Assembly: GCA_050740435.1 (NCBI GenBank)
Contig: JBOIDL010000001.1
Coordinates: 5,484 to 69,483 of the forward strand
Source of the DNA: Gammaproteobacteria bacterium
Lineage (GTDB): Bacteria > Pseudomonadota > Gammaproteobacteria > JACCXJ01
Direction: 5' to 3'
Length of the DNA: 64,000 nt
Shown here: piece by piece, positions 920 to 58,116 of the stretch
Numbering within the stretch: position 1 is the stretch's first letter
Layout of the letters: every line of letters starts with the position of its first letter
Notes under the pieces: generated by a model
What the model was told of the DNA's origin: nothing
The model's input: only the letters and a program-made list of their open reading frames with translations
The model's database searches: none
Program-made: the position numbers and the translations under genes

Positions 920-1109
920 CCGCTCGAAGATCAACCGCAATCGCGAGCAGGCCCAGATGCGCGAAGCCGCGGAGCGAGTCGCGAGACATATCGGGTAGAT
1001 AGGCAAGCGACGAGCGAGCACGCGAAGACGCGGGGAGCGGCCCGGACGGCCGCGCTTTGAGGAGCGAGGAAAGCAGATGGGCTGCGCAGTAACTTTTGCA
1101 GAGCTTCCC
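920..1109 (+). mobile_element. MITE-like element, family A, longer copy with a 46-bp internal insertion and degenerate left end
   Basis: About 75 nt (951-1023) is near-identical to the reverse complement of 27485-27560. The right end ...AAGCAGATGGGCTGCGCAGTAACTTTTGCAGAGCTTCCC matches the ends of the copy at 27469-27611. It is followed by TAA, then the ATG of the AI-2E gene. Confidence 0.45.
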
Positions 1110-15851: not shown

Positions 15852-16364
15852 CTACCGGGGCGACCCCGATGCCGGCGATGCGCTATCCGATGCCGCCTCG
15901 GCGTCGTTTGTCTCTTGATACAAATCAACCACGCGCGAAGCGGTCGGGTCGAACGTTTGACCGGGTTTCAAGCCAACTCCCACGGGAGAGTTCTGGACGC
16001 GAACCGGCACGGTTTGGCCGCGGATGCCTCGGACGTTAACATCGACCTGCTGCGATCCAAGGTCGCCCGTTAACGAATTGGTGCCGTTGATCCAAACGGT
16101 ATTGTCCCCGCGAGACCGCGATACGAAGCCGTCTACTCTGACACTTTGAACCGGGGGCGGCTCCGGTGCGAGGGCTTCAGGCTCCAGTGGCTCGGCCGGC
16201 GCTTCAGGGCTTGGGGGCTGATTCCGCAAGGCTTCGAGCCTCTGCCGCTCTTTCGGTGTCGTGAATAGGCGGCCGAGATCATCCGCGCGAATGCCGGGGC
16301 TCAGGAGCCCGAGCCCGACTAATGCAATGATTGTTTTCATGGCACGCCTCTTTTGCTTACCCAC
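15852..16364 (-). CDS. Secreted Pro/Ala-rich protein with signal peptide (MshK/PilP-like small pilus-biogenesis component, tentative)
   Basis: 170 aa, cleavable signal peptide (MKTIIALVGLGLLSPGIRA), proline-rich linker, beta-rich C-terminus; position within the msh-like operon. Confidence 0.4.
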   Translation of the reverse strand: MGKQKRRAMKTIIALVGLGLLSPGIRADDLGRLFTTPKERQRLEALRNQPPSPEAPAEPLEPEALAPEPPPVQSVRVDGFVSRSRGDNTVWINGTNSLTGDLGSQQVDVNVRGIRGQTVPVRVQNSPVGVGLKPGQTFDPTASRVVDLYQETNDAEAASDSASPASGSPR

Positions 16365-16406
16365 ACTTTACAAAAATTATCGCATTCAATGTAGGATGGG
16401 TTAGCG

Positions 16407-16523
16407 GCGTTGTTTGCGGCGTAACCCACCAACCTGACAAGCGTAGCTTGTCTCCTGACGCCTTTGCGGTATAACGAGTCGGCGTCCCGCCGACAGGATG
16501 GTGGGTTACGCCGCAAACAACGC
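16407..16523 (-). ncRNA. Structured RNA element in the 5' leader of the 15852..16364 gene: 24-bp perfect long-range stem enclosing nested hairpins
   Basis: Arms CGTTGTTTGCGGCGTAACCCACC (16408-16430) and its exact reverse complement (16500-16522) enclose GTCGGCG-gga-CGCCGAC and GACAAGC-tac-GCTTGTC hairpins. An AT-rich promoter-like stretch (16540-16640) lies upstream in the direction of transcription. Confidence 0.35.
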
Positions 16524-16656
16524 GGCTCTCAAGAAACACATTTTAAGTGATTGATTTTAAGTATATAACAAATTGATGTGTTTCTTTGTAAACGCCTTCC
16601 GTCACGGGCGGTTATTCAGCTAACCCGCCCTACATTTTGATACATTTTGCTAAGTT

Positions 16657-17277
16657 CTAAAGATCGATCCTCGCGCCGCTCGCGAGGCTTAGAGTAAACC
16701 AAAGCAAGTCACATTCCGCCTTGACGTTTTCCTCATCCGGATCCTCGGCGACTACATTTTGCGCCCGCTTGAGCGTACATTCCTTTACGGTATAGATCCC
16801 CGGCGCCTTCTCATCGAGATCTTGCAGCAAGGATGCAAGATCGGTCTCGTGTAACAACCCGAGGTCCAGTTTCATCGTGCTGGTACTGACTTGATAAGCC
16901 CCTGTAACAAGCGGAAACGCCGGGCTATAAGGTTCGCGGGAGGTGATCTCATAACGCAGGCCGGGAAGTTTAAGTGTCGCCGCGGCGTTTTTGAGGGTCT
17001 CCACCCAATCCAAGCGCATTTCATCTCCGACAATCCCGCGCCGGTATAGATTGACGAACCGCGGATACAGCTCTTTGATGATAAGCTCGTCCTGATCCAC
17101 CGACAGGTACTTGCGGCTTACCTCCAGAAACGTCTGGTTGTTGAGCCGATGGTCCTCCGCCATCTCGTCGCGGAAATAACCGCTGGCAATGATAAGCAAG
17201 GCGCTGATGATGAATGCTACCACCAGCGCCGCGAACGGCGCCCTCAACTGCGGCCATTCGATGTCAACCGTTCGCAT
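16657..17277 (-). CDS. PilO/MshJ-like bitopic pilus assembly protein
   Basis: 206 aa, single N-terminal TM (FAALVVAFIISALLIIASGYF) followed by a coiled-coil and periplasmic domain; start overlaps the upstream PilM/N-like gene. Confidence 0.5.
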   Translation of the reverse strand: MRTVDIEWPQLRAPFAALVVAFIISALLIIASGYFRDEMAEDHRLNNQTFLEVSRKYLSVDQDELIIKELYPRFVNLYRRGIVGDEMRLDWVETLKNAAATLKLPGLRYEITSREPYSPAFPLVTGAYQVSTSTMKLDLGLLHETDLASLLQDLDEKAPGIYTVKECTLKRAQNVVAEDPDEENVKAECDLLWFTLSLASGARIDL

Positions 17278-25781: not shown

Positions 25782-26435
25782 ATGACTTTAGCAATTTTCG
25801 ATCTTGATAACACGCTCATCGGCGGCGACAGCGACACACTCTGGGGAGAGTTCTTGACCGAGGAAGGTATCGTTCAAAAAGACGACTATGAGCGCCGCCA
25901 TGAACAGTATTACCGAGATTACTTGAACGGTGCGCTGGATATCTTCGCGTTTTTGGGTTTTCAGTTGGAAGTTTTAGCGCAGCATGATGCCGATACGCTG
26001 CGCGCGTGGCGCGGACAATATATCGAACGAAAAATCAAGCCGATCGTGCTTCCCAAAGCGCGAGCGTTATTGCACACGCATCGCGCCAAGGGCGACACGC
26101 TGCTCATCGTCACCGCCACCAATCGATTTCTCACCGAGCCCATCGCCGCATTACTGGACGTCGAGCATCTCATCGCGACCGAGCCTGAGATCATCGGCGG
26201 ACGCTACTCCGGTCGTGTGTGTGGAACGCCGGCATTTGCCGCCGGCAAGGTGGTGCGCTTATCCGACTGGCTGGTTAAACAGGGGACAAGCTATGCCGAG
26301 ACCTGGTTCTACAGCGATTCCCACAATGACTTGCCGCTGCTGCATGCGGTCACATATCCCGTCGCGGTGGATCCGGACGCGACGCTGGCGCAGGCCGCGA
26401 GCATCAATCGCTGGCCGGTGATTAGCCTGCGTTAA
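25782..26435 (+). CDS. HAD-IB family hydrolase
   Basis: 217 aa; motif I FDLDNTL, motif III/IV …YSDSHNDLPLL…; conserved neighbour of rppH in gammaproteobacteria. Confidence 0.75.
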   Translation: MTLAIFDLDNTLIGGDSDTLWGEFLTEEGIVQKDDYERRHEQYYRDYLNGALDIFAFLGFQLEVLAQHDADTLRAWRGQYIERKIKPIVLPKARALLHTHRAKGDTLLIVTATNRFLTEPIAALLDVEHLIATEPEIIGGRYSGRVCGTPAFAAGKVVRLSDWLVKQGTSYAETWFYSDSHNDLPLLHAVTYPVAVDPDATLAQAASINRWPVISLR

Positions 26436-26436
26436 G

Positions 26437-26467
26437 GCGTGCTCGCCACACTTTTGCAGAGCTTTCC
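26437..26467 (+). mobile_element. Solo right-end fragment of MITE family A (…GTGCTCGCCACACTTTTGCAGAGCTTTCC) between the HAD and mdh stops
   Basis: About 30 nt matching the right end of the 27469-27611 copy, followed by TAA. The mdh stop codon (TAG on the minus strand) overlaps its last base. Confidence 0.35.
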
Positions 26468-27450
26468 TAATGGCCTAAAAGCTTCTCGACCGCGTCCCGT
26501 TCTTCTTCCAGTTCCTTGCGGGTGATCTCCATGCGCGCGCGGCTAAACTCATCGATGCCGAGACCCTGGACAATGCTGTAGCCGCCGTCCCGCGTGGTCA
26601 CAGGGAATGAATAGATCAAACCGGGCGCAATGCCATAGCTCCCGTCACTCGCAACCGCCATGCTGGTCCAATCATCCGCCGGGGTTCCCATCACCCAATC
26701 GCGCATGTGCTCGATGGCCGCATTCGCGGCTGATGCCGCGCTCGAGGCGCCGCGCGCGGCGATAACCTCCGCTCCCCGTTTCGCGACCCGAGGAATGAAT
26801 TCATCCGCTAACCAGCGCTGCTCTATCGAGTCCTTGGCCGGCCGGCCGCGAATCAAGGCGTGGCTGATGTCGGGATACTGGGTGGTCGAGTGATTCCCCC
26901 AAATGGCTAGTTTCCTGATTTCCGTGACTTTGCAGCCGGCCTTTTGCGCCAACTGGGCGATGGCCCGATTGTGATCCAAGCGCGTCAGCGCCGAGAAGTT
27001 CGTCGCATTGATGTCCGGAGCGCTGCGCATTGCCGTTAAAGCATTGGTGTTCGCTGGATTGCCGACCACCAATACCTTGACCTCTCGCTGCGCGTGCTCA
27101 TTGAGGGCCCGGCCTTGTATCTGGAAGATCCCCCCGTTCGCGGCGAGTAGATCGCTGCGCTCCATGCCGGGACCACGGGGCCTGGCGCCCACGAGCAAGG
27201 CATAGGCGGTTCCCCGAAACGCGACCTTGAGATCGTCGGTAATGACGACGTCATCGAGAAGCGGAAACGCGCAGTCCATCAGCTCCATCGCGACGCCTTC
27301 CAGCACCTTCAAGGCGGGCGTTATGTCCAGTAACCGCAAGCATACCGGCTGGTTCGGTCCCAGCATCTCTCCGGCGGCGATGCGAAACAGCAATGCGTAA
27401 CCGATCTGGCCGGCGGCCCCAGTGACCGTAATTTGCACGGGTTGCTTCAT
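26467..27450 (-). CDS. mdh: Malate dehydrogenase (NAD-dependent, LDH-like 327-aa type)
   Basis: N-terminal Rossmann [17 protein letters not shown], catalytic …[12 protein letters not shown]…; full-length. Confidence 0.9.
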
Positions 27451-27468
27451 TGGCTCTCTCGCTTTTTA

Positions 27469-27611
27469 GGGAAGCTTACAAAAGTCACTGCGCAGCCCAT
27501 CTGCTTTGTCGCGTGCTCGCTCGTCGCTCGCCTATCTACCTGATATGTCTCGCGACTCGCTCCGCGGCTTCGCGCATCTGGGCTTGCTCGCGACACTTTT
27601 GCAGAGCTTCC
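27469..27611 (-). mobile_element. MITE-like element family A, full copy (about 143 bp) with imperfect terminal inverted repeats GGGAAGCTTACAAAAGT … ACTTTTGCAGAGCTTCC
   Basis: Its ends are inverted repeats of each other, and its core is the reverse complement of 951-1023. It is flanked by TTA on both sides (27466-68 and 27612-14), and the right TTA is the gltA stop codon (TAA, minus strand). Confidence 0.5.
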
Positions 27612-28913
27612 TTATTTTCTTTTTGCGACCGGCACATAGTCCCTGGTTTCGGAACCGATATAGATCTGGCGGGGACGTCCGATGCGGAAATCCGCATCCG
27701 TGATCATCTCCATCCACTGCGCCAGCCATCCGGCGGTCCGCGCTATGGCAAACAACACCGTGTACATACGGGTCGGTATTTCGAGCGCCTTGAGAATGAT
27801 CCCGGAATAAAAGTCCACGTTCGGGTAGAGTTTCCTCTCGATAAAATAGTCATCTTCCAGCGCGATGCGCTCCAGCTCCATGGCGATTTCGAGCATGGGC
27901 CGATGCGCGCCCGCGCCCATGGCGTCGAGGACGGCGTGACACGCCTTGCGGATAATCGCCGCGCGCGGGTCGTAATTTTTGTAGACGCGATGCCCGAATC
28001 CCATCAATCGATACGATCCATCCTTGTCCTTGGCGCGATCGACATACTTGCGTACGTTTTTAATATCCTGGATCTCTTCAAGCATATGCACGACCGCCTC
28101 GTTCGCGCCTCCATGTGCACGCCCCCACAAGGTCGCGATGCCCGCCGCGATACAGGTATAGGGGTTGCTCTCGGTGCTCCCCGCGAGCCGCACCGCGGAG
28201 GTGCTGGCGTTTTGCTCGTGATCGGCGTGCAGGATGAACAGCAGATCCAAGGCGTATACGGCGACCGGATTGGTGACAAAAGGTTGCGAAGGCTGCGCGA
28301 ACATCATCTGCATGAAGTTTTCTATGTACCCCAGGGCGTTGTTGGGATACACAAAAGGCTGGCCGACGCCATACTTGTAACACTTGGAAGCGATGTTCGG
28401 CATCTTCGCCAGAATACGGCGAGCGGTCGCATCGCGGTCACCCTGGTCGTAAATGTCAATCGAATCGTGGTAATACGAAGCCATCGCGCCGATCACGCCG
28501 ACCATGATGGACATCGGATGCGCGTCGTAGCGGTACCCGCCGTAGAATTTTATCAAGTGCTCGTGCACCATGCTGTGCTCTTTGACGGACGAATCGAATT
28601 CCGCCATTTGCCGGGCCGTCGGCAGTTCGCCATAAATCAGCAGGTACGCTACTTCCAGGTAGTGGCTGTGCTCGGCCAATTGCTCAATCGGGTAACCGCG
28701 GTACAACAAGATCCCCTTGTCGCCATCAAGGAAAGTAATGGCGCTACGGCAGCTTGCGGTCGTGACGAACCCGGGGTCCAAGGTAAACATCCCAAGCTCG
28801 CTGTAAAGGCGATTGGTATCGATGACGGCAGGCCCGTAAGTGCCGCGATAGACCGGACATTCGATCGTTTTACCGGTAGTATTGTCCCTAATCGTTACCG
28901 TGTCGGCTGTCAT
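27612..28913 (-). CDS. gltA: Citrate synthase (type II)
   Basis: Conserved citrate synthase motifs (…[14 protein letters not shown]…, …[19 protein letters not shown]…). Start set to the ATG at 28913 ([11 protein letters not shown]), which has an aggaga RBS; the longer ORF to 28985 is unlikely. Confidence 0.9.
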
Positions 28914-29244
28914 CGAACTCTCCTTGGGCCGCGGTCGTGTATTCGCGGTTGCGTTTCCAGGTTTCAACATAGCCTTATACCTCAATACACCCCCTGCGCG
29001 GTAAGCATAACGTTATTTTTCGCGCCGCAGCAAGTAGCGTCTCGGCGCCGCCGTGGCTGGACCGGATCATGGCAGCGGCTAAAACTCTTGGCCCATCCTT
29101 AGCTATTGGGTATTATTGCGGCGCACATTAAGGCTACCGTAATAACCGATCCCATGATCGCTTCGTTACCGTCATCATCGTGCGGCGCGGGCGCGCGGCG
29201 ATTCCCGTGTATGAGGAAACCGCCGCGTTTAATATTGATAAGTC

Positions 29245-44759: not shown

Positions 44760-44902
44760 GAGTTTGCGAAAAAACCGTCGCGAGCGAAGGGAGGTCGCGT
44801 TCCGCCGGAGCGCAGGAACCGGAGTGTATGTTGGAATACATGAGGATTCCGAGCACCGCCGGAATGCGAGATCCCGAGTGCAGTAGGTTTTTTCACAAAC
44901 GC
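44760..44902 (+). mobile_element. MITE-like element family B (143 bp) with about 17-bp terminal inverted repeats GAGTTTG(C/T)GAAAAAACC and 3-bp target duplication TGA
   Basis: About 93% identical to the reverse complement of 51492-51634; perfect-ish TIRs; TGA at 44757-59 and 44903-05. Sits between the pckG stop and the small coiled-coil gene start. Confidence 0.65.
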
Positions 44903-44916
44903 TGATGTCCGTCCTG

Positions 44917-50582: not shown

Positions 50583-51491
50583 ATGCAAGTAGAACGCGCG
50601 ACGGTCACGGCGATCGAAACAGCGCCGTGGGCCCGTAACTGGCTTAACTGCTTGCCGCTGTACCTGTTGCCTCACCACGCCTTGTCGCGCTTGATGCTGG
50701 TTGCGACACGCCTGCGTTTTCGACCGTGGAAAGATTGGCAAATTCGGTGGTTTATCCGCCGTTACGGGGTCGATATGGACAGCGTGGCCGAATCCGATCC
50801 GCGCGTCTACCCGGAATTCAATAGCTTCTTTACCCGCGCGCTCCGAGCCGATGCGCGCCCGATCGCGCCCGACCCTTGCTCATTGGCGTGCCCCGTCGAC
50901 GGTAGCGTGTCCCAACTCGGCGATCTCCGAGACGGGTCGTTGCTCCAGGCCAAAGGACAGCACTACAGTGTGTCCGGTCTGCTGGCAAGCATGGAGGCGG
51001 GAGCGTTCTTGGGGGGGCATTTCATCACCTTGTATTTAGCCCCGAGAGACTACCATCGAGTGCACATGCCAGTCACCGGGCGCCTGGTCCGATCGGTTCA
51101 TGTGCCGGGGCGCTTGTTTCCGGTGAAACCCAGCACGGTCCTGGGAATAAACGATCTCTTTAGCCGCAACGAGCGCATCGTTTGCCTGTTCGAAACCCAC
51201 GCAGGCCCGCTTGCGCTCATCATGATAGGCGCCATGTTCGTGGGCGCGATGGACCTTGTGTGGCGCCACGGTGGTGCGATGCACACGGCCGCGCGTCGTA
51301 TCTGCGTCTACGAACAACCCGAATCCTGCCCGGTGATCCTAAATCAGGGCGAGGAGATGGGCCGCTTTAACATGGGATCAACGGTCATCCTGCTGCTCGG
51401 GCCGGGCGCGATCCGCTGGTCGAAAACACTGCAACCCGGTACGCCCGTGACGATGGGGCAATCCATCGGAACCCTCGCCGGCCTGGGCTAA
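50583..51491 (+). CDS. psd: Phosphatidylserine decarboxylase proenzyme
   Basis: 302 aa; PSD motifs (…FFTRALR…, LGST cleavage/pyruvoyl site GSTV in …FNMGSTVILL…). The TAA stop at 51489-91 doubles as the left flank of MITE-B copy 2. Confidence 0.85.
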   Translation: MQVERATVTAIETAPWARNWLNCLPLYLLPHHALSRLMLVATRLRFRPWKDWQIRWFIRRYGVDMDSVAESDPRVYPEFNSFFTRALRADARPIAPDPCSLACPVDGSVSQLGDLRDGSLLQAKGQHYSVSGLLASMEAGAFLGGHFITLYLAPRDYHRVHMPVTGRLVRSVHVPGRLFPVKPSTVLGINDLFSRNERIVCLFETHAGPLALIMIGAMFVGAMDLVWRHGGAMHTAARRICVYEQPESCPVILNQGEEMGRFNMGSTVILLLGPGAIRWSKTLQPGTPVTMGQSIGTLAGLG

Positions 51492-51634
51492 GAGTTTGTG
51501 AAAAAACCTACTGCGCTCGGGATCTCGCGTTCCGGCGGTGCTCGGAATCCTCATGTATTTCAACATACACTGCGGTTCCTGTGCTCCGGCGGAACACGAA
51601 CTCCCTTCGCTCGCGACGGTTTTTCCACAAACTC
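51492..51634 (-). mobile_element. MITE-like element family B, second copy (143 bp), inverted relative to the 44760-44902 copy; 3-bp target duplication TAA
   Basis: TIRs GAGTTTGTGAAAAAACC / GGTTTTTCCACAAACTC; flanked by TAA (51489-91, the psd stop) and TAA (51635-37). The lptF stop codon (TAG, minus strand) spans the junction at 51634-36. Confidence 0.65.
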
Positions 51635-52731
51635 TAAGCCAACGCCTCGCGCCGGAACTGCCGCGCCCACCGCTTGCGCAAGAGCGGATAACCAAGGAGT
51701 GCAAGGATCACAAGGCCTAAGAGCGCATGCACCCACCATAAACCCAGATACACAGGCACGGCGCCCTGCTCGGCCAAGGTCTTCGCGATCCCCAAGAGAT
51801 TGCTGTAAGTGAAATAAATCAAGACCGCGCTCAAGAGCCCGAGGATCCGGTTCTGGTCAGATGCCGCTCGCACCAGCGCCACCGCGAGGAGCGTCAACAG
51901 CACGGTACTGATCGGCATTGCGATTCGCCACTGCAACTCAGCGGCCGCCTCCGGCGTGTTAGCCGACCACAAGCTTGCGGTGCTCGCCGCGCTCGCGCGC
52001 TCGCTCCCGTCCGCCGCCTCACTGCGGTCGATACGCACGCCGTATTTCTCGTACTCGACAATGGAATAATCGAGCCGTCCCGGGGAGCCCATATAGCGGC
52101 GCCCGGCGTAAAAGTTCACATAGCGAGATCCGGTTTTCTGGTCGAGCTCGATTTCCGCTCGGTCAGCGGCAAGCACCCCGAGGTGGCTGTCTTGCCGCCC
52201 TTGCAGGAACACATTGGACATGCTGCGCTTGTCGGGAGACAGCCGCTCCACATAGAGGATGCGGTTACCCTCATTGAAATCCTTGAATTGCCCCGGCGTG
52301 ATCCCGGTCAGGTCGGATTCCGATTTGGCCCGGTTTTCCACCTCAATCAAGCGCGCTTCCGCCCACGGCGCGACCGCGAGCGCGAGGATCGCGACGAGGA
52401 GCGCCACGGCGAAAGCAAGTCTGGCCGCCGTATCGAAAAGAAACCGCGAGCCCAAGCCCAAGCTTGCGATGGCGATAAGCTCGTTGTCGCGCGACAGCCG
52501 GTTCAAGGCGACATAGACGCTAATGTAGTGGCACAAGGGCAGCATCAGTACCAAGGAGTTCGCTATCTTTAAGGCCAGCAGCTCGAAGATCAGTCCGCTG
52601 TCGATCTTTCCGGCGGCAGCCGTCGCCAGGTACTGCGCGAAGCGGCTGCTGGCGTAGGTGAGTAATAGCAGGAGTTGCACGGCCCCGAACCACAATAAGA
52701 TCTCCCGGATGAGGTAGCGGTTTAACAGCAT
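51634..52731 (-). CDS. lptF: LPS export ABC transporter permease LptF (YjgP/YjgQ family)
   Basis: N-terminus MLLNRYLIREIL… (LptF/LptG-type start), 6 TM helices with a large periplasmic loop, divergent from pepA as in E. coli and Pseudomonas. Start trimmed to the ATG at 52729-31; the longer ORF begins at a GTG. Confidence 0.75.
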   Translation of the reverse strand: MLLNRYLIREILLWFGAVQLLLLLTYASSRFAQYLATAAAGKIDSGLIFELLALKIANSLVLMLPLCHYISVYVALNRLSRDNELIAIASLGLGSRFLFDTAARLAFAVALLVAILALAVAPWAEARLIEVENRAKSESDLTGITPGQFKDFNEGNRILYVERLSPDKRSMSNVFLQGRQDSHLGVLAADRAEIELDQKTGSRYVNFYAGRRYMGSPGRLDYSIVEYEKYGVRIDRSEAADGSERASAASTASLWSANTPEAAAELQWRIAMPISTVLLTLLAVALVRAASDQNRILGLLSAVLIYFTYSNLLGIAKTLAEQGAVPVYLGLWWVHALLGLVILALLGYPLLRKRWARQFRREALA

Positions 52732-52872
52732 GAGGATGCCCGTGCGCTTTGCTTTGCGGTATCGATAACAATACACTTGCTCGCCAAGACGCGATTCACC
52801 TTGATAATACGCGCGTTACCATTGAATTGCCGATTTCGCTTCGAGCGTTAACTATAACAGCATAGGGGGGCT

Positions 52873-57944: not shown

Positions 57945-57976
57945 TGCACTGGTGAGGTAACTTTTGCAGAGCTTCC
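57945..57976 (+). mobile_element. Solo right-end fragment of MITE family A (…GGTAACTTTTGCAGAGCTTCC) followed by TTA, between valS and tRNA-Leu
   Basis: About 30-nt match to the right ends of the copies at 1075-1109 and 27580-27611. Confidence 0.3.
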
Positions 57977-58031
57977 TTAGATGCTATCCTGGCCGGCGAT
58001 TCACTTTGGATGCGTGGACTTCTTGATGTCC

Positions 58032-58116
<85 letters not shown>

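Follow-up and report, generated by a model that had tools for sequence, protein, structure and literature searches.

The spacer between gltA (citrate synthase) and mdh in the 64,000-nucleotide stretch of DNA analysed here (the window; 59% GC) carries a short repeat whose flanks coincide to the nucleotide with translational signals, which raises the question of what kind of element this repeat is and how it can lie so close to genes without damaging them. The first-pass annotation had regarded the repeat, called family A, as a transposable element with a 3-bp TNA/TWA target-site duplication, as in the IS1031/ISL2 group of the IS5 family or in PIF/Harbinger. In our view, the repeat is very probably a 143-bp MITE that belongs to the IS5 group within the IS5 family, mobilised in trans by a DDE transposase and flanked by a duplicated 4-bp YTAR target.

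Family A copies in the window and in related genomes

The consensus family A element is 143 bp long, with 17-nt terminal inverted repeats (GGAAGCTCTGCAAAAGT), and has no coding capacity, as there is no room for an ORF. Family A is represented by four copies or fragments in the 64 kb of the window, which are listed here with their flanks.

941-1108, plus strand: family A copy found by nhmmer, without its first 18 nt, with a 44-nt insert at about 1026-1069 and an intact right end
1109-1112: YTAR flank CTAA, overlapping by one base the ATG of the AI-2E transporter gene (1112-1114)
26437-26466, minus strand: about 30 nt from one end of the element (model positions about 3-38), where the histidinol-phosphatase-like (HAD) gene and mdh converge
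26467-26470, CTAA on the plus strand, TTAG on the minus strand: YTAR flank of this fragment; 26467-26469 is the mdh stop codon TAG
27466-27469, TTAG on the plus strand, CTAA on the minus strand: mdh-proximal target-site duplication, before the left end of the element; it matches the single CTAA of the empty site in relatives L001 and L003
27470-27611, minus strand (consensus orientation): the only two-ended copy in the window, 142 bp, in the spacer between the gltA stop codon and the mdh ribosome-binding site
27612-27615, TTAT on the plus strand, ATAA on the minus strand: gltA-proximal target-site duplication; 27612-27614 is the gltA stop codon TAA
about 57958-57976, plus strand: terminal fragment of about 19 nt, between valS (stop codon 57930-57932) and tRNA-Leu (58032-58116)
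57977-57980: YTAR flank TTAG of this fragment, overlapping no translational signal

The two-ended copy spans model positions 1-143 in an nhmmer search with a 14-copy profile (E 4.5e-46). Its ends are GGAAGCTCTGCAAAAGT and GGAAGCTTACAAAAGT, the subterminal sequences of the family being GGAAGCTCTGCAAAAGTGTCGCGAGCAAGCC and GGAAGCTCTGCAAAAGTTACTGCGCAGCCCATCTGC, and as RNA it forms a long hairpin with a folding energy of -64 kcal/mol (z -4.9), within the range of -64 to -71 kcal/mol found for family A RNAs. The copy at 941-1108, in which model positions 19-104 were placed at 941-1026 and 91-143 at 1063-1108, is tied to it by the inverted repeats I2 and I4. Three of the four copies in the window are decayed or shortened. 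The 16-mer CACTTTTGCAGAGCTT gave four matches with up to three mismatches, where 0.45 were expected, so that the repeats are not due to chance. All five family A ends in the window read GCTT(C/T)C followed by Y-T-A.

An Rfam search of the whole window returned the tRNA-Leu only and no family matching family A, and no site resembling a promoter or a terminator turned up when positions 26300-27800, with the window copy and its surroundings, were scanned. On visual inspection, the CTTTTGCA core was rejected as a sigma-54 promoter because its GG/GC spacing is unsuitable. A second MITE family, with a 3-bp TNA duplication, occurs in the window at 44760-44903 and 51491-51634.

Genome contigs scanned with a 17-mer contained at least 14 elements with two perfect ends, all of exactly 143 bp. 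The hosts of these perfect-ended copies are MAGs of Chromatiales/Gammaproteobacteria, including USCg_Taylor, Frasassi, Lehman Caves, SD8037 and SD8032, and at least 13 family A loci were found in SD8037 bin.6. The same scan of viral contigs gave 13 matches, which we attribute to chance because none has a YTAR flank.

The coincidences with translational signals pointed out in the first-pass annotation were upheld. The stop codon of gltA (ORF 27612-28985, minus strand) at 27612-27614 lies in a family A flank, and the stop codon of mdh (ORF 26467-27450), a TAG on the minus strand at 26467-26469, overlaps another. The CTAA at 1109-1112 shares A1112 with the AI-2E start codon, and this start is confirmed by an alignment of nine homologues that all begin with MSSEQ or MPSEQ.

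Empty sites and the 4-bp target duplication

Relatives of the window genome provided the empty sites. In L001 and L003, whose Mdh is 94% identical, the gltA-mdh spacer is 16 nt long without the element and reads GAAAC-TAA-AAAAGCGAGAG, whereas the filled site in the window reads GAAAA-TAA, element, C-TAA-AAAGCGAGAG; the two sites differ by one A in a homopolymer run. In L111, whose AI-2E protein is 94% identical, the site reads GTAAC-CTAA-TGTCT, and none of the relatives L111 to L114 has an element upstream of the AI-2E start. A single CTAA is thus found in relatives both at the gltA stop codon (L001 and L003) and at the AI-2E start codon (L111). The fragment at 26437-26466 is also present in L001 and L002, the L001 version reading GCTTCC followed by CTAA, and is absent from L004, in which the stop codons of the HAD gene and mdh are 6 nt apart.

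This presence or absence between relatives, together with the duplicated target, bears out the view of family A as a transposable element. That it might instead be a conserved regulatory or structural repeat of the host, comparable to REP and not mobile, would agree with its intergenic positions, its hairpin and the lack of a matching Rfam family, but the precise differences between close relatives at duplicated targets already refute such a reading. Its terminal inverted repeats are moreover identical to those of transposase-encoding IS elements, and its copies occupy unrelated genomic contexts in several MAG species, so that a chance of it being right is practically nil.

The length of the duplication was determined from 33 distinct sites, obtained from 37 full copies that a profile search found in related MAGs. 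Among these, the identity between the flanks of the two sides was 38% for an assumed length of 3 bp, 73% for 4 bp and 30% for 5 bp, and perfect direct repeats numbered 4 at 3 bp and 14 at 4 bp, with no such repeat of 5 bp or longer. Left and right flanks alike have the composition Y, T, A, R; in the right flank, Y was found at 33, T at 32, A at 32 and R at 33 of the 33 sites, and no extended motif was evident beyond YTAR. The remaining copies, in which the duplication is imperfect, have one mismatch or a 1-nt indel, which we take as decay. A constant element boundary at GGAAGC...GCTTCC gives a flank of 4 bp, YTAR.

A short, T-A-centred target duplication was correctly recognised in the first-pass annotation, but its length was not. 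The T-A core does follow every family A end, as had been stated, but the register of 3 bp (TAA or TTA) is disfavoured, since it would move the element boundary by one base between ends (GCTTCCC then TAA against GCTTCC then TTA). The window's two-ended copy is the case that speaks for 3 bp: TTA stands on both sides (27466-27468 and 27612-27614) as a perfect direct repeat, and the 4-bp duplication is imperfect (TTAG...TTAT), with the mismatch at position 27615; each empty site also has one TAA. The gltA stop reads AAC-TAA in L001 and AAA-TAA in the window, however, which indicates that the fourth base either changed after insertion or differed in the ancestor. A 3-bp TWA/TNA duplication of the kind made by the IS1031/ISL2 groups or PIF/Harbinger-like elements is very improbable, given the 33-site comparison above, the restriction of the outer positions to Y and R, which it does not predict, the InsH-like transposases of the autonomous relatives, which are those of the IS5 group, and the fact that PIF/Harbinger is a eukaryotic superfamily.

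A duplication of TA only, as in MITEs of the IS630/Tc1-mariner type such as Correia, was also considered, the adjoining R and Y then being the ends of a 145-bp element. The TA core is invariant in every flank, and a single comparison of a filled with an empty site cannot separate TA from a 4-bp duplication. Were the inner R and Y part of the inverted repeat, however, the two flanks would be complementary, with CTAA on the left and TTAG on the right. This combination was not observed and its converse, TTAG/CTAA, was observed once, against nine CTAA/CTAA, three TTAG/TTAG and two CTAG/CTAG pairs; direct pairs thus outnumber complementary ones, which indicates a direct repeat outside the inverted repeat. 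As the outer Y and R are conserved too, and elements with the same terminus encode a DDE_Tnp_1 transposase of the IS5 type and not of the IS630 type, we give the TA-only duplication very little credence.

Assignment to the IS5 group

The 4-bp YTAR duplication leads to the IS5 group itself. Metagenome elements of 1031-1230 bp have the same 18-nt terminus as family A, several of them with perfect TTAA, TTAG or CTAA duplications, and in five InsH-like IS (L177, L202, L226, L232 and L172) the left repeat is identical to the family A terminus over 18 nt. Full-length metagenome elements encode proteins with DDE_Tnp_1 and DUF772 domains, and the 327-aa transposase of one of them is 53% identical to InsH of E. 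coli IS5 over 321 residues (E 4e-124). These superseded a BLASTP match between a 22-aa N-terminal peptide of the IS end L070 and InsH, which was suggestive (E 0.11). Of 17 positions compared, the family A terminus and the left terminal repeat of E. coli IS5, GGAAGGTGCGAACAAGT, agree at 12. The motif duplicated by IS5 has been given as 5'-YTAR-3', from E. coli insertions with reconstructed duplications that include 220 IS5A events (PMC5009759).

Family A thus resembles E. coli IS5 in its 4-bp YTAR duplication and in a terminus starting with GGAAG, and differs from it in being a 143-bp, ORF-less, non-autonomous derivative whose interior bears no relation to the full-length elements recovered. 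The first-pass annotation's assignment to the IS5 family, taken broadly, is well supported. The IS1031/ISL2 subgroup has to be replaced by the IS5 group in view of the YTAR duplication and the InsH-like transposases, the error in the subgroup following from that in the duplication length, and PIF/Harbinger, which also has a second, Myb-like protein, does not agree with a 4-bp duplication in a host that is bacterial by gene content and MAG names. The IS1031/ISL2 and PIF/Harbinger elements share with family A a short, T-A-centred target and a distantly related DDE transposase superfamily; the former, PIF/Harbinger and the Tourist MITEs have 3-bp TNA/TWA duplications, in contrast to the 4 bp of family A. 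Other bacterial MITEs (Correia of Neisseria, RUP, ERIC/IRU, Nezha) are likewise small, intergenic, present in high copy number and bounded by terminal inverted repeats and a target duplication, and their transcripts form hairpins and are often co-transcribed with flanking genes. Correia-type elements, however, duplicate TA and depend on other transposase families, whereas family A is IS5-derived and duplicates YTAR.

Neither the window nor the examined contigs of the host clade yielded an autonomous IS with the family A subterminal sequence. A second end in inverted orientation, sought up to 2.5 kb away at the genome-contig loci, gave two matches, neither with a transposase, the ORFs inward of single family A ends were all host genes, and a blastn search of the L070 IS end against plasmids gave no match. 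MAG assemblies usually break at IS copies. From the shared termini and duplications, we infer that family A is mobilised in trans by an IS5-group transposase in this host.

Insertion at stop codons

The mechanism that we propose would account for the position of these elements relative to genes. A DDE transposase of the IS5 group would mobilise family A in trans and make staggered cuts at the tetranucleotide YTAR (CTAA/TTAG, CTAG or TTAA), and gap repair would leave the element with a YTAR copy at either end. TAA or TAG is present in every YTAR, on both strands, so that a stop codon preceded by a pyrimidine is itself a target. An element landing on such a stop would have it regenerated by the gene-proximal copy of the duplication; the protein would remain unchanged and the element would be placed exactly outside the reading frame. 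By the same logic the ATG in CTAA-TG would be preserved. Selection would then remove insertions within genes or in divergent spacers, which carry promoters, and the survivors would be concentrated at the 3' ends of genes in compact genomes. The earlier remark that insertions spare coding sequence to the single nucleotide proved right, and it is the duplication that rebuilds the stop.

According to crude ORF-based gene calls, on which all stop-codon counts rest, one copy of the duplication is the stop codon of a called gene at 18 of the 33 family A sites, whereas the YTAR sites available at the same loci comprise 97 at stops and 549 in intergenic positions (p 1.6e-7). When only co-directional and convergent spacers were taken, 17 of 26 insertions were at stops, compared with 24% of the available sites (p 7e-6). 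Overall, 55-69% of the insertions are at stops against 15-24% of available YTAR sites, an excess beyond what the availability of the motif explains. Divergent spacers, which make up 46 of the 327 background spacers, contain no family A site. We infer that the excess results from the target motif together with purifying selection in compact, GC-rich genomes. A literature search for IS5-type MITEs that target stop codons found nothing directly relevant.

Alternatively, the transposase might prefer gene ends, or the hairpin might be kept for mRNA stability or processing, as with REP/BIME and Correia. The size of the enrichment and the strength of the RNA hairpin would fit such explanations, as would the 10 of 18 stop-codon sites that are flanked by co-directional gene pairs; where such a pair forms an operon, the element is co-transcribed. 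The element is also oriented with transcription at 13 of these sites and against it at five, but this bias is not significant. That only 2 of 21 further MITEs and insertion sequences which share this terminus but come from different hosts are at stops speaks against a preference of the transposase, and no extended motif is evident. The absence from divergent spacers is a prediction of purifying selection, and many copies are decayed or truncated, as in the window. Taken together, these alternatives are unlikely. Somewhat less likely still is the specific proposal that family A is preferentially retained or inserted at cistron boundaries because its 143-nt hairpin works between cistrons, as an RNA element, to give operon transcripts (gltA-mdh, for instance) differential stability or processing; if true, family A would be an IS5-type MITE domesticated by uncultured USC-gamma-like bacteria.

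Family A is an ordinary IS5-type non-autonomous transposon, many surviving copies of which lie exactly on stop codons and leave the gene undamaged. Its classification is corrected from a 3-bp TWA to the 4-bp YTAR duplication of the IS5 group, and the single-nucleotide precision of its insertions has a mechanical reason, as the stop codon lies within the target motif and is rebuilt by the duplication. In practice this bears on the annotation and assembly of USC-gamma-like Chromatiales MAGs, in which the 143-bp repeat is abundant, lies inside operons and can mislead the calling of gene ends and intergenic regions. A new biological question would arise only if family A proves to have a function at the RNA level; the stop-codon excess is a small but clean illustration of the way in which the target specificity of a MITE, together with selection, determines where it survives in a compact, GC-rich genome.

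Family A copies and their flanking duplications

The repeat designated family A occurs four times in the window, where its 16-mer core has 4 matches against 0.45 expected by chance. No family matching it was found in Rfam. The copies and the neighbouring genes are as follows.

941-1108: family A copy upstream of the AI-2E transporter gene, with its first 18 nt missing and a GC-rich 44-nt insert at about 1026-1069
25782-26435, plus strand: histidinol-phosphatase-like HAD gene, convergent with mdh
26437-26466: family A terminal fragment of ~30 nt
26467-27450, minus strand: mdh, in tandem with gltA
27470-27611: two-ended family A copy between gltA and mdh
27612-28985, minus strand: gltA, in tandem with mdh
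about 57958-57976: family A terminal fragment of ~19 nt

The first-pass annotation had noted that family A ends coincide with translational signals, and this coincidence is real: the stop codons of gltA (27612-27614) and mdh (26467-26469) lie at such ends, and the AI-2E ATG has one base in common with the CTAA at 1109-1112, the same methionine opening 9 homologues. GCTT(C/T)C followed by Y-T-A was found at 5/5 ends in the window, and the TAA or TTA triplet claimed for every end is obtained only by shifting the boundary by one base between ends.

The 17-nt family A terminus (GGAAGCTCTGCAAAAGT) was searched in 185,579 species-representative genomes. Among the matches listed, many were in Chromatiales/Gammaproteobacteria MAGs, and the terminus was present in USCg_Taylor, Frasassi PCtopBin12, Lehman Caves 20pBin3, SD8037 bin.6, SD8032 bin.28 and MFD06229. 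Two perfect ends were found in 14 of the listed elements, each exactly 143 bp long with little interior variation, and a profile built from them yielded, among the same matches, 37 full copies, which represent 33 distinct sites. With the boundary set at GGAAGC...GCTTCC, both flanks have the consensus Y-T-A-R. Instead of the 3-bp TWA duplication proposed earlier, the flanks indicate a 4-bp YTAR duplication: left and right flanks are 73% identical for an assumed length of 4 bp, and identity drops to 38% when 3 bp and to 30% when 5 bp are assumed, with perfect 4-bp repeats at 14 sites and repeats of at least 5 bp at none. The repeats are direct, as the pairs CTAA/CTAA (9 sites) and TTAG/TTAG (3) outnumber TTAG/CTAA (1) and CTAA/TTAG (0). 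Because of this orientation, the outer flank bases are not part of the inverted repeat, which also excludes a 2-bp TA duplication.

A second MITE (miniature inverted-repeat transposable element) family, 144 bp long and bounded by the terminal repeats GAG(T/G)TTG(C/T)G...C(A/G)CAAACTC, is located at 44760-44903 and 51491-51634 and in a locus from outside the window (L038:1042-1181). Perfect 3-bp TNA duplications (TGA, TTA, TGA) flank 3/3 copies, which is the IS1031-like pattern that had been suggested for family A. The duplication at 51489-51491 is the stop codon of a plus-strand gene (50583-51491), and the other boundary is spanned by the TAG stop of a minus-strand gene (51634-52776). Two further repeats were observed in the window. 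Eleven overlapping 99-nt units, with a spacing alternating between 27 nt and 9 nt, form a tandem array at 242-538 within overlapping ORFs (110-517, plus; 130-552, minus), neither of which had a match in NCBIfam. A 34-nt inverted repeat (16403-16527), with 94% complementary arms 57 nt apart, is intergenic between ORFs 15852-16364 and 16657-17277.

Empty sites in related genomes

The comparison with empty sites suggested in the first-pass annotation was carried out in close relatives (about 87-95% nucleotide identity), and a single CTAA without the element was found at both the gltA-mdh and the AI-2E junction. L001 and L003 (Mdh 94% identical) have a 16-nt gltA-mdh spacer, and their minus strand reads GAAAC-TAA-AAAAGCGAGAGAGCCAATG, compared to GAAAA-TAA-(142-bp element)-C-TAA-AAAGCGAGAGAGCCAATG in the window. 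The target was one CTAA, formed by the stop codon and the third base of the Asn codon before it; the change from AAC to AAA at its first base may reflect either mutation of one duplication copy after insertion or a different ancestral sequence. The same junction in L004 (Mdh 92% identical; L004:2039-2173, orthologous to window 27451-27611) carries an unrelated 135-nt insert, in which the alignment showed two self-complementary stretches (CCAAAGGGGAGAG...CTCCCCTTTGG and CCCGCCGC...GCGGCGGG). The gltA-mdh junction seems to have received small elements more than once.

The AI-2E locus of L111 (94% identical) reads ...GATTGTAAC-CTAA-TGTCT, and in the window family A ends in GCTTCC followed by CTAA-TG. 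Upstream (window 930-941 versus L111:90-115), the window has lost both a 16-nt piece of the native leader (CGCCGCCGATTGTAAC) and the initial 18 nt of the family A copy. The mdh-HAD fragment is common to the window, L001 and L002 and is absent from L004, where the two stop codons are 6 nt apart. The last two mdh codons differ between carriers (...LLGH-stop, ...LLGR-stop) and non-carriers (...LLAG-stop, ...ILGAG-stop; window 26467-26480 versus L004:3140-3165 and L005). This difference is a compensated frameshift beside the junction, so that insertion of the fragment or a later deletion remodelled the extreme C-terminus of mdh; given these codon differences, the history of the junction includes a deletion and is only partly reconstructable.

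Stop codons as insertion sites

Whichever strand is read, every YTAR (CTAA/TTAG, CTAG or TTAA) includes TAA or TAG, so that a stop codon with a pyrimidine directly before it can serve as a target. Upon insertion, the duplication restores the stop codon beside the gene, and target motif and rebuilt stop together explain the single-nucleotide precision without a special mechanism. The stop of a called gene was a duplication copy at 18/33 sites, with open frames mostly of 150-700 codons. YTAR sites in the same loci comprise 97 at stop codons, 549 intergenic and 1026 coding, indicating enrichment at stops (binomial p 1.6e-7, odds ratio 6.8), and co-directional and convergent spacers alone gave 17/26 at stops versus a 24% background (p 7e-6); genes were called by our own ORF and GC3 heuristic, and these percentages are approximate. 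Co-directional spacers contain 18 copies, convergent spacers 8 and divergent spacers none. MITEs and insertion sequences of other hosts with the family A terminus are at stops in 2/21 cases. In compact, GC-rich genomes whose operons have short spacers, we read the excess as the product of the target motif and purifying selection, rather than of stop-codon targeting by the transposase, which we do not favour.

Family assignment and possible effects

The family A terminus agrees at 12/17 positions with the left end of E. coli K-12 IS5 (GGAAGGTGCGAACAAGT). A metagenome scan with the family A terminus plus one base detected many YTAR-flanked elements, including full-length ones of 1031-1230 bp (L172, L177, L202, L226, L232, L245, L146), several of them within perfect TTAA, TTAG or CTAA duplications. 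Their ORFs contain DDE_Tnp_1 and DUF772 domains, and one protein is 53% identical over 321 residues to InsH, the E. coli IS5 transposase (E 4e-124). IS5 duplications have the YTAR motif, according to insertions reconstructed in E. coli mutation-accumulation lines, including 220 IS5A events (PMC5009759). Based on the terminus, these full-length elements and the shared motif, family A is, as judged from sequence, a MITE of the IS5 group. The proposed transposon of the broad IS5 family is thereby upheld, and an IS1031/ISL2 or PIF/Harbinger kind is not borne out. A cognate insertion sequence was not found in the window or in the host-clade contigs searched, and family A is probably mobilised in trans in this host.

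Other short elements have their own internal sequences and the 17-18-nt terminus of family A, with YTAR flanks on those examined. They measure 92-172 bp in metagenome loci, and a 122-bp variant is found in a Burkholderiales MAG (L017, L055, L133, L137, L141, L154, L159, L175, L183, L197, L207, L221, L229, L231, L234, L237, L243, L250; also L015, L078, L090, L103). Many MITE families of various bacteria seem to derive from a single IS5-type terminus.

A scan of 26300-27800, which includes the two-ended copy, revealed no promoter-like or terminator-like site, and the orientation bias of family A (13 versus 5) is not significant. The two-ended copy folds as a long hairpin (-64 kcal/mol, z -4.9; consensus, -71 kcal/mol), for which a role at the RNA level is only possible. 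In the case of a gltA-mdh operon, the element would be co-transcribed between the two genes.
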